A DNA stretch of 39,899 nt from Escherichia phage vB_EcoP-101120B2, in the sequence record MZ234023.1; one strand, written 5' to 3'. The translations under genes and the position numbers were made by a program. Below the pieces are notes generated by a model that searched no databases, was not told the DNA's origin, and worked only from the letters and a program-made list of their open reading frames with translations. Positions 30,244 through 33,520 of this stretch are shown piece by piece (the first letter of the stretch is position 1; every line of letters starts with the position of its first letter).

Positions 30244-31128
30244 ATGTCTCAATCAGTTTATGCCGAGTTCGGCGTTAGCTCTAATGCAATCACTGGTTCC
30301 GTTGAGGACCTGAACGAACACCAGAAGTCTATGCTTGAACAGGACGTAGCTGTTCGTGATGGCGATGACGCTATTACCTTCAAGCAACTGGAAGCCGAAA
30401 ACGAAGAGGCGACCGAAGAAGACGAGAACGTCGAAGAGACGGAGGGTGCTGAAGACAACGAGTCCGATGACGAAGAGTCTGAGACCGATGGTGAGCAGCC
30501 TGAGTTCATTGAACTGGGTGATGCACCGAAAGAGCTGACCGAAAGTGTCACCGCTCTGGATGAAAACGAAGCTGCATTTGACGACATGGTGTCTTCCGCT
30601 GTAGAAGCTGGCAAGGTCACTGCTGATGAAATTACCGCTATCAAGGCTGAATACGCCAAGGACGGTAAGCTGTCTGACGCATCCTACGCTAAGTTGCAGG
30701 AAGCAGGTTACACCAAGCGTTTCGTAGATTCGTTTGTCCGTGGTCAGGAAGCTCTGGCTGAACAGTATGCTGCTGGAGTGGTTCGCTACGCTGGTGGAGC
30801 TGAACAGTTTAACCGCATTCTGTCTCACCTTGAGTCAACCGACCCGTCAACTCGTGAGGCACTGGAAGCTGCTATCGTTCGTAAGGACATTTCGACTACC
30901 AAAGCTCTGCTGAATCTGGCTGGCAAGACTCTGGGTAAAGCTGTTGGTGTTAAACCTCAGCGTACCATCACCACTCAGGCTAAACCTGTGGTCGCACCTA
31001 AGGCTCCTCAGACCGAAGCATTCAGCTCCAAGGCTGACATGATTAAGGCTATGAGTGACCCGCGATACCTTCGTGACGCTAAGTACACGATGGAAGTACG
31101 CGCTAAGGTAGCTGCCTCAAGCCTGTAG
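30244..31128 (+). CDS. Capsid assembly / scaffolding protein (gp9)
   Basis: Acidic protein. Start at ATG 30244 with AAAGGAG RBS. C-terminal region (KAMSDPRYLRDAKY) matches recalled T7 gp9. Confidence 0.85.
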   Translation: MSQSVYAEFGVSSNAITGSVEDLNEHQKSMLEQDVAVRDGDDAITFKQLEAENEEATEEDENVEETEGAEDNESDDEESETDGEQPEFIELGDAPKELTESVTALDENEAAFDDMVSSAVEAGKVTADEITAIKAEYAKDGKLSDASYAKLQEAGYTKRFVDSFVRGQEALAEQYAAGVVRYAGGAEQFNRILSHLESTDPSTREALEAAIVRKDISTTKALLNLAGKTLGKAVGVKPQRTITTQAKPVVAPKAPQTEAFSSKADMIKAMSDPRYLRDAKYTMEVRAKVAASSL

Positions 31129-31130
31129 GA

Positions 31131-31153
31131 CTAAACTATCACTATAGGGAGAC
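31131..31153 (+). promoter_or_regulatory. Phage RNAP promoter (phi10 equivalent)
   Basis: CTAAACTATCACTATAGGGAGACC, followed by GGGAGACCAAGAGACAGACTCAAGGTTTCCC, analogous to the T7 phi10 leader hairpin. Confidence 0.75.
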
Positions 31154-31254
31154 CAAGAGACAGACTCAAGGTTTCCCTATTACTTCAGTCCATACGGATT
31201 GGGCGTACAGTAAGTAATAAACTTTATCTTTCAATTGAATAGGAGAATTATCAT

Positions 31255-32304
31255 ATGGCAAACGTTCCGGGTCAGAAAGTTGGTACAGACCAAGGTAAAG
31301 GCAAATCTGGTTCCGACGCTCTGGCGTTGTTCCTGAAGGTCTTTGCTGGTGAAGTCCTGACCGCATTCACTCGCCGCTCTGTAACTGCTGACAAGCATAT
31401 TGTCCGTACCATTCAGAACGGTAAGTCTGCTCAGTTCCCGGTCATGGGACGCACCTCTGGGGTGTATCTGGCTCCGGGTGAGCGACTGTCCGATAAGCGT
31501 AAAGGTATCAAACATACCGAGAAAGTGATTACCATTGATGGTCTGCTGACTGCCGATGTGATGATTTTCGACATTGAAGACGCGATGAACCACTATGACG
31601 TGGCTGGCGAGTACTCCAACCAGTTGGGCGAAGCTCTGGCTATCGCTGCCGATGGTGCGGTACTGGCTGAGATGGCTATTCTGTGTAACCTACCGGCTAC
31701 ATCTGATGAAAACATCGCTGGTCTTGGCAAAGCGTCTGTGCTGGAAGTTGGTACTAAAGCAGACCTGAACACTCCGGCTAAGCTGGGTGAAGCAATCATC
31801 GGTCAACTGACCATTGCTCGTGCGAAGCTGACATCCAACTACGTTCCTGCTGGCGACCGTTACTTCTACACCACGCCGGACAACTACTCTGCAATCCTCG
31901 CGGCTCTGATGCCGAACGCTGCTAACTATGCTGCGCTGATTGACCCAGAGACTGGTAACATCCGTAACGTAATGGGCTTCGTGGTTGTTGAAGTTCCACA
32001 CTTGACTCAGGGTGGTGCTGGGGAAACTCGTGGTGCCGATGGTATCACTATTGCGACTGGTCAGAAGCACGCCTTCCCAGCTACTGCTACTGGTGATGTT
32101 AAAGTTGCTCTGGACAACGTTGTGGGCCTGTTCTCTCACCGTTCTGCTGTAGGTACTGTTAAGCTGCGTGACTTGGCGCTGGAACGTGACCGTGACGTCG
32201 ATGCTCAGGGCGACCTGATTGTTGGTAAGTACGCTATGGGTCACGGTGGTCTGCGTCCAGAAGCAGCAGGCGCACTGGTTTTCACAGCGGCGTCAGCGGG
32301 TTAA
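31255..32304 (+). CDS. Major capsid protein (gp10A)
   Basis: 349 aa. ALFLKVF, HTEKVITIDGLLTADVMIFDIEDAMNHYDV, AILAALMPNAANYAALIDPE and KYAMGHGGLRPEAAGA match T7 gp10A. Confidence 0.95.
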   Translation: MANVPGQKVGTDQGKGKSGSDALALFLKVFAGEVLTAFTRRSVTADKHIVRTIQNGKSAQFPVMGRTSGVYLAPGERLSDKRKGIKHTEKVITIDGLLTADVMIFDIEDAMNHYDVAGEYSNQLGEALAIAADGAVLAEMAILCNLPATSDENIAGLGKASVLEVGTKADLNTPAKLGEAIIGQLTIARAKLTSNYVPAGDRYFYTTPDNYSAILAALMPNAANYAALIDPETGNIRNVMGFVVVEVPHLTQGGAGETRGADGITIATGQKHAFPATATGDVKVALDNVVGLFSHRSAVGTVKLRDLALERDRDVDAQGDLIVGKYAMGHGGLRPEAAGALVFTAASAG

Positions 32305-32567
32305 CGACCTTTAAGGCCCTCTCTACAGAGGGTCCTACCTTAGAGACGTATAGTTCTACGGTGGGAACCAGCCTGAAGGTTGACTTCCCTGAGCTTTCAG
32401 ATGTGACCGATTGGTCGCTGCTTGAGGTGACTACGCCTGATGGTGTTAGCTACTCCCGTAGAACCAACAGTCTCTACTTCAAGGCCACCTCTGGCGTGGA
32501 AGGTCTGGTGATTGTTGGGTATGACGGTACGCCTGTGCGTTCCTTCAACGTATCTTTCACAAACTAA
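31255..32567 (+). CDS. Minor capsid protein (gp10B-like), predicted product of -1 programmed frameshift near 32277-32283
   Basis: G GTT TTC heptamer in the same codon context (ALVF) as the recalled T7 10A/10B shift site. The -1 frame is open from there to the stop at 32567 (~95-aa extension). Confidence 0.5.
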
Positions 32568-32573
32568 TTGAAA

Positions 32574-32610
32574 CCCCTTGGGTGCCTTCGGGTGCTTGAG
32601 GGGTTTTTTT
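32574..32610 (+). terminator. Tphi-like intrinsic terminator after the capsid gene
   Basis: CCCCUUGGGUGCC / GGUGCUUGAGGGG 13-bp stem (with G-U pairs), UUCG tetraloop, followed by TTTTTTT. Very similar to T7 Tphi. Confidence 0.8.
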
Positions 32611-32625
32611 GCTTAAGGAGGGACT

Positions 32626-32715
32626 ATGTTCCTTATTTACACAGGGTTAGCACTATTCGTCTTATTCTGGGCGTACCTGCTGCCCAGCTCACCGTCTAGC
32701 CCCTATGACCGCTAA
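32626..32715 (+). CDS. Hypothetical 29-aa hydrophobic peptide
   Basis: AAGGAGGG RBS 5 nt upstream of ATG. Product MFLIYTGLALFVLFWAYLLPSS... is membrane-like. Confidence 0.3.
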   Translation: MFLIYTGLALFVLFWAYLLPSSPSSPYDR

Positions 32716-32726
32716 GGAGTAAACCT

Positions 32727-33293
32727 ATGTCTCAATACATTCCACTTAATGCTAACGATGACTTAGATGCCATCAACGATATGTTAGCTGCTATTGGTGA
32801 ACCAGCAGTCCTACAGCTTGACGAAGGTAACGCTGACGTCTCGAACGCTCAACGTATCCTGCATCGTGTTAATCGTCAGGTCCAAGCTAAAGGCTGGAAC
32901 TTTAACATCAACGAAGCTGCTGTCCTGACGCCTGATGTCCAAGACAACAGGATTCGATTCCTGCCGTCTTACCTTCGGGTCATGACTGCTGGGACCACCA
33001 GCTACTACAGCAACATGGGTGGATACCTATACGACCTGTCCACTCAGTCAACCACTTTCACCGACCCTATAACGGTAGAGCTTGTTGAGATGAAACCGTT
33101 CTCGGAGATGCCTGTGGTATTCAGGGACTACATCGTTACCAAGGCCAGCCGTGAGTTCAACGCTAAGTTCTTCGGTAGCCCAGAGTCTGAACTGTACCTT
33201 CGTGAGCAGGAATCAGAACTCTATCAGCAGGTCATGGAATACGAGATGGACACTGGTCGCTACAACATGATGTCCGACATCGGGAGGGACTAA
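32727..33293 (+). CDS. Tail tubular protein A (gp11)
   Basis: 188 aa. ILHRVNRQVQAKGWNFNINE, YLYDLSTQS, FRDYIVTKASREFNAKFFGSPE and MEYEMD match T7 gp11. Confidence 0.9.
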   Translation: MSQYIPLNANDDLDAINDMLAAIGEPAVLQLDEGNADVSNAQRILHRVNRQVQAKGWNFNINEAAVLTPDVQDNRIRFLPSYLRVMTAGTTSYYSNMGGYLYDLSTQSTTFTDPITVELVEMKPFSEMPVVFRDYIVTKASREFNAKFFGSPESELYLREQESELYQQVMEYEMDTGRYNMMSDIGRD

Positions 33294-33520
33294 TGGCTAG
33301 TCACAACCTGAAGATTCACCGCCAGCACTTTGGTCCGGTACAACTAGGTCTAAAGACAGCAGAGCTGAGACTTAACGACCGGGACTTTAAGGTTGGCGAC
33401 TGGCTTATCCTGAATGAGTGGGACAACGGGTATACTGGACAACAGGTAGCACGTAAGGTTGTCCACATTGCTGACGTTGGTGACATCGCTGAGGGATACG
33501 TCCTAATGAGTATGATTTAA
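33293..33520 (+). CDS. Hypothetical protein, DUF3850/ASCH-like
   Basis: 75-aa ORF with GGGAGGG RBS and ATG overlapping the gp11 stop. Pattern LKIHRQHFGPVQLGLKTAELRLNDRDFKVGDWLILNEW...YTG resembles DUF3850-type small domains. T7 has nothing between genes 11 and 12. Confidence 0.55.
   Translation: MASHNLKIHRQHFGPVQLGLKTAELRLNDRDFKVGDWLILNEWDNGYTGQQVARKVVHIADVGDIAEGYVLMSMI

Follow-up and report, generated by a model that had tools for sequence, protein, structure and literature searches.

Our analysis concerns the 3' end of the major capsid gene of Escherichia phage vB_EcoP-101120B2, within the 39,899 nucleotides of sequence record MZ234023.1 (the whole of this stretch is referred to here as the window). 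We consider it highly probable that a -1 slip at positions 32277-32283 yields a minor capsid protein, 10B, which carries an outward-facing Ig-like domain. The extension beyond the slip site is genuine coding sequence for a domain in the -1 frame and is under purifying selection; the dN/dS of the domain lies at 0.14-0.37, and its variable sites fall mainly at third codon positions (18/17/47 across the three codon positions).

The phage genome is that of a Kayfunavirus, a K1F-like member of the T7 family. Gene 10A, taken from the list of open reading frames, occupies 31255..32304 on the + strand in the zero frame, ends with a TAA stop codon at 32302-32304 and encodes a major capsid protein of 349 aa (36.4 kDa), which matches the Pfam family PF21703 (Gp10A-like, E=1.7e-104) and is 100% identical to the annotated major capsid protein of phage vB_EcoP-PM129. 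The predicted C-terminal peptide of this zero-frame product is YAMGHGGLRPEAAGALVFTAASAG. A putative promoter for the phage RNA polymerase, ACTAAACTATCACTATAGGGAGA, was read from the sequence 5' of the capsid gene at 31130..31152 (+ strand); it contains TCACTATAGGGAGA, which we take to be shared with the T7 class III promoter consensus. Its position equals that of T7 phi10 in NC_001604, and to judge from the sequence it may act as the equivalent promoter. At the other end of the locus, a terminator scan places a Tphi-like intrinsic terminator at 32570..32613 (+ strand), in which a 17-bp stem with AACCCCUUGGG (32570-32607) begins 3 nt past the 10B stop and is followed by a run of T (U in the RNA). 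This terminator is near-identical in K1F and many relatives, and in MZ234023.1 its stem contains the sequence CCCC; according to the review PMC5009743, frameshifting in gene 10 of T7 is aided by a CCCC in Tphi.

The proposed shift site is a slippery heptamer, G GUU UUC (32277..32283, + strand), at Val342-Phe343 of 10A, where the zero-frame codons read CTG GTT TTC ACA and give the context A-L-V-F, as the preliminary description had noted for the end of this capsid gene. The heptamer is identical to the gene 10 shift site of T7 (L004) and lies in the homologous Val-Phe codons. It was for T7 gene 10A/10B that Condron, Atkins and Gesteland reportedly described a -1 programmed ribosomal frameshift in 1991. 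The T7 site is listed as G_GU U_UUC (review PMC5009743), and the two phages are alike in that the heptamer stands a few codons before the 10A stop and the -1 ORF ends just before a Tphi terminator with a CCCC stem. The same ALVF context had earlier been ascribed to T7; the identity of the heptamer holds, but the T7 context is A-V-V-F (GTG GTT TTC AAA; NC_001604), with Val (GTG) in the preceding codon where this phage has Leu (CTG).

Beyond the heptamer the -1 frame comprises 94 sense codons before a TAA at 32565-32567, in line with the ~95 codons open to 32567 that had first been reported, and it holds no stop from 32229 until that TAA. This open frame is more than chance, since the -1 frame of the capsid gene contains 29 stops in 350 codons, mononucleotide shuffling of 32277-32564 leaves the -1 frame without a stop in just 1.5% of cases, and the open frame recurs in every domain-bearing relative. 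As for the longest -1 runs after other genes in the window, downstream genes often occupy that frame, and the comparison is not a telling one. With the terminator stem lying 3 nt past the -1 stop, the extension does end just short of Tphi, as had been claimed. The figure of ~53 given for the T7 extension is right as the net difference in length between 10B and 10A (53 aa), but 56 codons follow the shift (NC_001604). The T7 extension has no Pfam match or recognisable domain and is not an Ig-like domain (review PMC5009743), in contrast to the linker and Ig-like domain encoded here, and the distance from slip site to terminator is about 290 nt here versus about 180 nt in T7. The predicted 10B has 343 + 94 = 437 aa and a mass of 45.9 kDa, which exceeds the 36.4 kDa of 10A by 9.6 kDa. 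The predicted tryptic peptide across the junction (Phe343-His344) is YAMGHGGLRPEAAGALVFHSGVSGLTTFK, and those predicted within the extension of the -1 product are ATSGVEGLVIVGYDGTPVR, ALSTEGPTLETYSSTVGTSLK and VDFPELSDVTDWSLLEVTTPDGVSYSR. The frameshift interpretation of the preliminary description is supported by comparison with relatives.

Translation of the -1 frame gives a linker, HSGVSGLTTFKALSTEGPTL (32283..32342, + strand; 10B residues 344-363), which overlaps the last seven zero-frame codons and the 10A stop. Its 20 residues are predicted to be disordered (AlphaFold pLDDT about 50); it evolves fast, with a dN/dS of roughly 0.5-1.7, yet no stop interrupts it and its indels keep the frame intact. 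The linker leads into a 74-residue domain (10B residues 364-437, with the TAA at 32565-32567; 32343..32567, + strand), for which AlphaFold and fold matching point to an Ig-like beta-sandwich. AlphaFold places seven strands in the domain with a pLDDT of about 90, and the predicted fold resembles Ig-like domains in a generic manner (TM about 0.55, Z <= 7.6), the fold matches including the N4 decoration protein and the Hoc-like protein of phage S6. As modelled, 10B would be a virion structural protein with an Ig-like beta-sandwich at its C-terminus.

In sequence, the domain matches phrog_7473 (E=6.7e-37), a family with no assigned function. A Pfam scan of the extension returned no family, its sole sub-threshold match (Peptidase_M14, E=0.14) being judged noise; the extensions of KP32 and PP81 gave no Pfam match either, and a PDB sequence search with the family profile gave no match up to E=10. 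A diverged Big_2 domain (PF02368) was considered and is unsupported at the level of sequence: hhalign against the Big_2-type extensions of relatives gave a probability of 1%, with no Pfam match, while those Big_2-type extensions themselves match Big_2 at E=1e-8 to 3e-23. The domain is a separate sequence family whose fold is similar to that of the Big_2 extensions.

The heptamer and the extension occur together across relatives. Among 71 distinct IMG/VR relatives, an extension of class A (T7-type) or class B (the type found here) is present at 41 of the 45 distinct loci with GTTTTC and at none of the 26 without it (Fisher p = 1.6e-15, with the relatives treated as independent of shared ancestry). 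GTTTTC is present in 31/31 class-B sequences from the first scan and in 9/9 class-B loci added later, and none of the 71 distinct relatives has a class-B domain without GTTTTC upstream; a further scan of IMG/VR, made with the profile of the domain, gave only 13 loci, mostly duplicates. Where relatives have GGTCTTC, GGTATTC or the like at this place, the -1 ORF is short and runs into the terminator. The class-B domain is kept in 454 phage records from at least five genera, and without exception it continues directly from the slip site in the -1 frame; its lineages are Kayfunavirus, Caroctavirus (CR8), Przondovirus (KP32), Pektosvirus (PP81) and Ningirsuvirus (Ninurta). Przondoviruses of Klebsiella carry it particularly often. 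Between the class-B lineages the distance from the Val codon to the zero-frame stop varies (15, 21 or 24 nt), and the frame of the domain is unaffected. The heptamer varies at its first base (C in Ninurta and loci L025/L026, A in PP81), so that re-pairing in the P site would be weak at best.

The stretch from slip site to terminator acts like a cassette that can be exchanged. K1F, of the same genus, is about 96% identical to the window through the capsid gene up to the same heptamer and again from the shared terminator on, but the intervening segment is unrelated and encodes a short T7-type tail of 48 codons after the shift (44 extra triplets). Close relatives carry such short helical tails of the T7/K1F type in this position, and distant relatives carry Big_2 domains. 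In isolate ZG49 (L012) half of the domain has been lost by deletion, which indicates that the phage can do without the domain, at least in culture; two loci, L018 and L041, have truncated T7-type tails.

From these data we propose a model for expression of the locus. Most ribosomes on gene 10 would terminate at 32302-32304 and yield the 349-aa 10A, and a minority would slip back one nucleotide on G GUU UUC, with the A-site tRNA-Phe moving from UUC to UUU and the P-site tRNA-Val from GUU to GGU. The slipped ribosomes would read CAC AGC and onward in the -1 frame to the TAA at 32565-32567, and the resulting 10B would consist of 10A residues 1-343, a flexible linker of ~20 residues and the 74-residue Ig-like beta-sandwich. 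As 10B has a complete HK97-fold body, it would be expected to co-assemble with 10A, so that sub-stoichiometric subunits bear an Ig-like domain tethered outside the head. The slippage in this phage, the presence of 10B in its virions and the outward direction of the domain are what we infer. The exposure of the C-terminus of T7-family capsid proteins is established by display systems. The suggestion in the preliminary description that the longer extension encodes a surface-exposed decoration fits the predicted linker and Ig-like fold, as well as display on gene 10b of K1F (PMC6277420, PMC13370021). By analogy, the most likely role of the domain would be weak multivalent adhesion to carbohydrate-rich surfaces such as the host envelope, capsule or mucus, a role that has been suggested for Ig-like domains of other phages.

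Several known systems bear on this model. Gene 10b of K1F encodes a minor capsid protein used for the display of GFP, EGF and adhesins (PMC6277420, PMC10367136, PMC13370021); its fusion to GFP gives fluorescent virions (PMC6277420) and the display of adhesins has been achieved with it (PMC13370021), and in K1F the frameshift product enters virions and tolerates C-terminal cargo. Peptides from 10B of Kvp1, which has the short form, show the shift at TTTTCA (PMC2579914). Peacock (MK903279) is 98.5% identical over the locus and is annotated with a two-piece CDS join at exactly equivalent coordinates, and the record of Citrobacter phage CR8 (NC_023548), with a homologous 91-codon extension, gives a -1 frameshift at 'tttt' with mass-spectrometry matches, in a note that is silent on extension-specific peptides. 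Neither differs in substance from the phage described here, and such a frameshift-made extension is already documented in these close relatives and is not novel. PM129 and the other closest records annotate the extension as a separate hypothetical protein. The virion proteome of SH4, which has an identical extension, was searched against a database without the extension and is uninformative either way; in the literature we found no direct proteomic detection of the long 10B in Kayfunavirus or KP32. The addition of Ig-like domains to phage structural proteins by frameshifting was reportedly described by Fraser et al. in 2006. In the group of T3 and phiYeO3-12 a -1 shift likewise gives a C-terminal Ig-like domain on a fraction of capsid subunits, with a proposed role in accessory adhesion (PMC5009743), but there the shift takes place at a lysyl site. 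Big_2-type relatives, which match Pfam Big_2, are mostly without GTTTTC, and A AAG GGN stands near the stop in some of them.

Folding of the RNA 3' of the slip site points to a candidate structured domain at 32289..32395 (+ strand), which starts 5 nt past the heptamer and includes a hairpin, CCCUCU-CUAC-AGAGGG, at 32317-32332 (+ strand). The 117 nt at 32284-32400 have a minimum free energy of -45.9 kcal/mol and a z of about -3, which ranks this segment among the top 5% of 184 background windows by z and among the top 0.5% by minimum free energy. Its pairs are largely retained in relatives, with two compensatory pairs per clade, as judged on within-clade structures derived from the same sequences that were used to test them. 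A cross-clade alignment gave a consensus of seven pairs only, the linker being unalignable between clades; other lineages have stable hairpins of different sequence, and the most stable local hairpins begin 14-50 nt downstream of the site at positions that differ by lineage. A search for a canonical stimulator found neither a hairpin nor a pseudoknot 5-9 nt downstream, nor a strong Shine-Dalgarno-like element upstream, and Rfam over 31000-32800 returned no family, with two sub-threshold chance matches. A role of this candidate structure as a frameshift stimulator is only suggestive.

The domain could be reached by routes other than ribosomal slippage. In most public records 32361-32567 appears as a gene of its own for a 68-aa hypothetical protein ('gp10.1'), which would start at GTG 32361 by its own initiation and remain unfused to the capsid; the stand-alone standing of phrog_7473 in PHROGs agrees with this, and the start of the folded domain about 20 residues past the shift makes a free domain physically plausible. 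We regard such an independent small gene as very improbable. The GTG is not conserved, with GTA, GCT or ATT in its place in other clades, gene callers picked at least four different starts, and there is no Shine-Dalgarno or AGGAG-type motif upstream, whereas genes 10 and 11 and a nearby small ORF have AGGAG or GGAGG. The frame is, moreover, open back to the heptamer in every lineage despite the fast-evolving linker; whatever the length of the zero-frame tail, the domain keeps to the -1 frame of the capsid gene, and it is never without GTTTTC upstream. A change of frame in the RNA itself, with the phage RNA polymerase and not the ribosome slipping on the T4 run, could draw on the short homopolymer in the site (TTTT, 32279-32282), but four T are far below the run lengths known for productive transcriptional slippage. 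The conserved unit is the codon-phased GTT TTC and not a longer run. The review PMC5009743 names slippage in transcription as another way in which phages make frameshifted proteins, and it treats shifting at the identical T7 site as ribosomal; we give polymerase slippage hardly any credence. It is likewise scarcely credible that the -1 frame is a remnant without function or open by chance, its product being noise. The deletion through the domain of ZG49 and the truncated tails of L018 and L041 lean that way, as does the general view that T7 10B is non-essential, but they stand against purifying selection (dN/dS 0.14-0.37), retention in 454 records and at least five genera, a compact fold confidently predicted by AlphaFold and the tight co-occurrence of heptamer and extension.

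A further alternative accepts that 10B is made by frameshifting and differs in what the domain does, taking it for a capsid-stabilising cement on neighbouring capsomers instead of an outward adhesin. Ig-like decoration proteins stabilise capsids in other phages, and the N4 decoration protein and phage S6 Hoc-like protein are among the fold matches; the Ig-like minor capsid protein of Peru-2, furthermore, contacts pentamers (PMC13320782). However, a predicted-disordered linker of 20 residues combined with sub-stoichiometric, random incorporation would be a poor design for a lattice cement, and relatives with capsid bodies at least 95% identical bear a wholly different short tail, which indicates that the shell is independent of the domain. 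We consider the cement role unlikely.

Returning to the tethered, outward domain, we offer a wider reading tentatively, as a possibility that we doubt as a whole. The domain may be an unclassified Ig-like family, without a Pfam entry or solved structure, and one of at least three interchangeable display cassettes (the T7-type helical tail, this domain, and Big_2 of one to several modules) that recombine between slip site and Tphi in Studiervirinae; the linker may be constrained mainly as a lineage-specific stimulatory RNA, and the domain may tune adhesion to capsule, LPS or mucus.

What is added here to the documented cases is the cassette between slip site and terminator, the widespread mis-annotation of the extension and the stable RNA after the slip site. 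In most of the roughly 450 domain-bearing phage records the domain is either listed as a hypothetical protein of its own or has no annotation, and this mis-annotation hides a virion surface component of therapy-candidate phages, among them kayfunaviruses of E. coli, Salmonella and Enterobacter and przondoviruses of Klebsiella. With this domain, the known set of Ig-like domains appended by frameshifting gains a further family, and the overall picture is unchanged. The extension marks a natural site for cargo display that is permissive and sub-stoichiometric, and should the domain act as an adhesin, it could influence the retention of these phages in mucus or on capsule.

The capsid locus of the window is 100% identical to that of Escherichia phage vB_EcoP-PM129 and 95-99.9% identical to those of many other members of Kayfunavirus, the K1F-like T7 relatives. 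The capsid gene 10A (31255..32304, plus strand) lies 3' of a T7-class promoter-like sequence (ACTAAACTATCACTATAGGGAGA, 31130-31152, plus strand) and encodes a protein of 349 aa and 36.4 kDa (Pfam Gp10A-like, E=1.7e-104). Its zero frame ends ...GCA CTG GTT TTC ACA GCG GCG TCA GCG GGT TAA, where the heptamer G GTT TTC (32277-32283, plus strand) encodes Val342-Phe343. The -1 frame has no stop from 32229 until a TAA at 32565-32567, leaving 94 sense codons after the slip, and the predicted frameshift fusion 10B would comprise 437 aa (45.9 kDa). A terminator with a 17-bp stem and a T-run, closely resembling T7 Tphi, begins at 32570. The open -1 frame is not due to composition, since the -1 frame of the capsid gene carries 29 stops per 350 codons and shuffles of the extension segment were stop-free in 1.5% of cases. 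The preliminary description had given the open frame as about 95 codons to 32567, ending just ahead of a Tphi-like terminator, and both points agree with our counts. Its T7-like codon context holds for the heptamer but not for the ALVF it ascribed to T7, whose record reads GTG GTT TTC AAA (A-V-V-F); there, 56 codons follow the shift and the product is lengthened by 53 aa net. Apart from this slight error the rest of the observation stands; it is confirmed, and its interpretation as a T7-type site with a longer, possibly surface-exposed 10B extension is supported.

Evidence for use of the slip site came from comparing 80 IMG/VR capsid loci (protein identity 72-97%), together with a dozen GenBank records that carry annotation. 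Their -1 extensions sort into three classes. Class A is a short tail of the T7/K1F type, 45-57 codons long, with the ending ...LTPxQKAARTRAANKA...; class B, to which the window's extension belongs, runs to 91-103 codons, and in it VTDWS and RRTNxLYFK are conserved; class C is made up of Big_2 Ig-like domains (87-475 codons, Pfam E=1e-8 to 3e-23). Of the 71 IMG/VR loci that are distinct, 45 have GTTTTC, and 41 of these bear an extension of class A or B, with truncated versions or one Big_2 case making up the other four. Neither class occurs in any of the 26 loci lacking this sequence (Fisher p = 1.6e-15, uncorrected for phylogeny). At loci with GGTCTTC, GGTATTC and similar sequences the -1 ORFs are short and merely translate the terminator. 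All class-B extensions (31 sequences of the first set, 30 of them distinct, and 9 later loci) run on without a gap from the slip site in the -1 frame, and this phase is kept in Kayfunavirus, Caroctavirus (CR8), Przondovirus (KP32), Pektosvirus (PP81) and Ningirsuvirus (Ninurta), despite a zero-frame stop at 15, 21 or 24 nt past the Val codon.

Across class B, GTT TTC is invariant and the first base of the heptamer is G, C or A. Loci L025, L026 and L105 (Dickeya phage Ninurta) read CTC GTT TTC and L104 (Pectobacterium phage PP81) reads GCA GTT TTC, each with an intact class-B extension; P-site re-pairing is thus not conserved, and the functional slip core may be U UUU C alone. GTTTTC is mostly absent from the relatives with Big_2 extensions (L035, L050, L051, L055, L058, L059, L064 and L069), which have GGTAATC, GGTGGTC, GGTGTTC or similar, and several of these carry A AAG GGN a few codons further on, in keeping with reports of a lysyl-site shift in T3 and phiYeO3-12. 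Slip-site type and cargo type therefore appear to be linked. A T7-like capsid gene in L062 (IMGVR_UViG_3300034349_000001, from position 1248) reads G GTT TTT at the heptamer, and its -1 frame stays open for 475 codons, with a Big_2 domain first and then about 390 residues that lack a Pfam match; translation of this frame, if it occurs, would yield a capsid extension of unusual size.

The extension is commonly annotated as a separate 'hypothetical protein', and several lines of evidence oppose this reading. Comparing codons between the window and six diverged class-B lineages yields dN/dS = 0.14-0.37 for the domain, with variable sites mostly at third codon positions (18/17/47). The first ~26 extension codons have a dN/dS of roughly 0.5-1.7, yet remain open, with frame-preserving indels. 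The GTG at 32361, used as the start in many records, is GTA, GCT or ATT in other clades, and gene callers have picked at least four different starts across genomes. No Shine-Dalgarno-like motif was found in the 20 nt 5' of this GTG; AGGAG or GGAGG is present 5' of gene 10, the small ORF at 32626 and gene 11. Selection in the -1 frame, the open linker, the unconserved start and the missing motif together argue against a separate gene; judged from its sequence, the extension is a genuine protein domain that lacks a start of its own. In records such as MT862763, OK210074 and PV485104 the 349-aa 10A is itself named 'minor capsid protein 10B' and the extension a hypothetical protein; this name has spread by BLAST, with the frameshift left out of the gene models.

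AlphaFold2 on a 20-sequence alignment of the extension (mean pLDDT 81) predicts disorder for residues 1-20 (pLDDT about 50) and seven beta-strands for residues 21-94 (pLDDT about 90). The top Foldseek match in the PDB is the C-terminal Ig-like domain of the lambda tail-tube protein gpV (E=2e-3, TM 0.55), and the N4 capsid decoration protein was also matched. In BFVD only one match is strong, the homologous 'minor capsid protein' from Pectobacterium phage PP81; assorted Ig-like and Big_2 proteins rank below it. Sequence-level searches of the class-B family found neither a Pfam match nor a relative among solved structures, and hhalign gave no profile similarity to the Big_2 class (probability 1%). 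Only one PHROG, phrog_7473 (unknown function), represents the family. By tblastn the domain is present in 454 phage records, of which 285 are from Klebsiella phages.

The window is about 96% identical to K1F through the heptamer and just beyond, and near-identity resumes at the terminator (ATTGAAACCCCTTGGG) and onward; the segment between is unrelated, as in a cassette flanked by two anchors, the slip site and the terminator. Among Kayfunavirus capsid bodies at least 95% identical, some carry class A and others class B. In the isolate ZG49 (Escherichia phage ZG49, KX669227, with its IMG/VR copy; L012 / L098) a natural deletion has removed the C-terminal half of the domain and the terminator, joining the -1 frame to a homologue of a small hydrophobic ORF (...EVTTPEWFFLLKVRMIMFYLLTALGLFVSFWAIILLTGPCSPYDR); a capsid-membrane-peptide chimera is predicted if the shift still happens. 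The ZG49 deletion shows that the domain is dispensable and, with the swap between K1F and the window and the presence of either class on like capsids, marks it as exchangeable and not essential for shell-making. In the window the small hydrophobic ORF (29 aa, MFLIYTGLALFVLFWAYLLPSSPSSPYDR, 32626-32715, plus strand), which has a strong Shine-Dalgarno sequence (AAGGAGGG), is located 3' of the Tphi-like terminator and 5' of gene 11. It resembles a single transmembrane helix, has no Pfam match and is a hypothetical protein in the PM129 annotation; K1F lacks it, with gene 11 directly after the terminator. Directly 3' of tail tubular protein A (gene 11, 32727-33293) is a 75-aa ORF (33293-33520, plus strand; DUF3850 E=1.9e-19, ASCH domain E=1.4e-5), a putative RNA-binding fold inserted within the structural gene block; in T7, gene 12 follows gene 11 immediately.

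The T7 gene 10 heptamer of the recoding literature is that of the window (X_XX = G_GU; PMC5009743), and in the related phage Kvp1 trans-frame peptides place a -1 shift at TTTTCA (PMC2579914). By homology, tRNA-Phe would slip from UUC to UUU, and tRNA-Val may or may not re-pair. The 117 nt past the heptamer (32284-32400) fold at -45.9 kcal/mol (z about -3), in the top 5% by z and top 0.5% by MFE of 184 background windows of the genome. Predicted helices are kept at 96-98% in both the window and KP32 clades; many changes are wobble-compatible, with two compensatory pairs per clade. Stable hairpins vary by lineage, with onsets 4-51 nt past the slip site. Because the structures were tested on the sequences from which they were derived, and the spacing is atypical of a classical stimulator, a stimulatory role for this candidate RNA structure is only suggestive; it matched no Rfam family. 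Both 32284-32400 and its KP32-like equivalent (alignment A4, columns 27-69) encode a poorly conserved protein 'linker' and form a very stable local hairpin in each lineage. That of the KP32 clade (18 bp, -25 to -26 kcal/mol) is lower than all 994 background regions, and codon changes on one strand of its stem (Thr/Val/Ala) co-vary with those on the other (Ser/Pro and synonymous Pro). In T7, CCCC in the terminator adds to frameshifting (PMC5009743), and the window's terminator retains this motif.

K1F gene 10b has been described as a -1 frameshift product, and its C-terminal GFP and adhesin fusions are displayed on virions (PMC6277420, PMC13370021). In the Peacock record a CDS in two pieces, labelled 'minor capsid protein', has exactly equivalent coordinates. 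The CR8 record lists a homologous 10B, places its -1 frameshift at 'tttt' and notes 'matches in mass spectrometry analysis', the genome announcement giving no peptide detail. The SH4 virion proteome, from a phage with an identical extension, could not reveal 10B, which was absent from its search database. T3 has an Ig-like capsid extension made by -1 frameshifting, whereas that of T7 is not Ig-like (PMC5009743); the window thus pairs a T7-type slip site with Ig-like cargo of a different sequence family, a combination that public records already contain and annotate, but that is rarely recognised. The feature is an ordinary, previously documented case of gene 10 frameshifting, to which our analysis makes modest additions: a fold assigned to the extension, the limits of the cassette, how widely the locus is mis-annotated and a candidate RNA structure.
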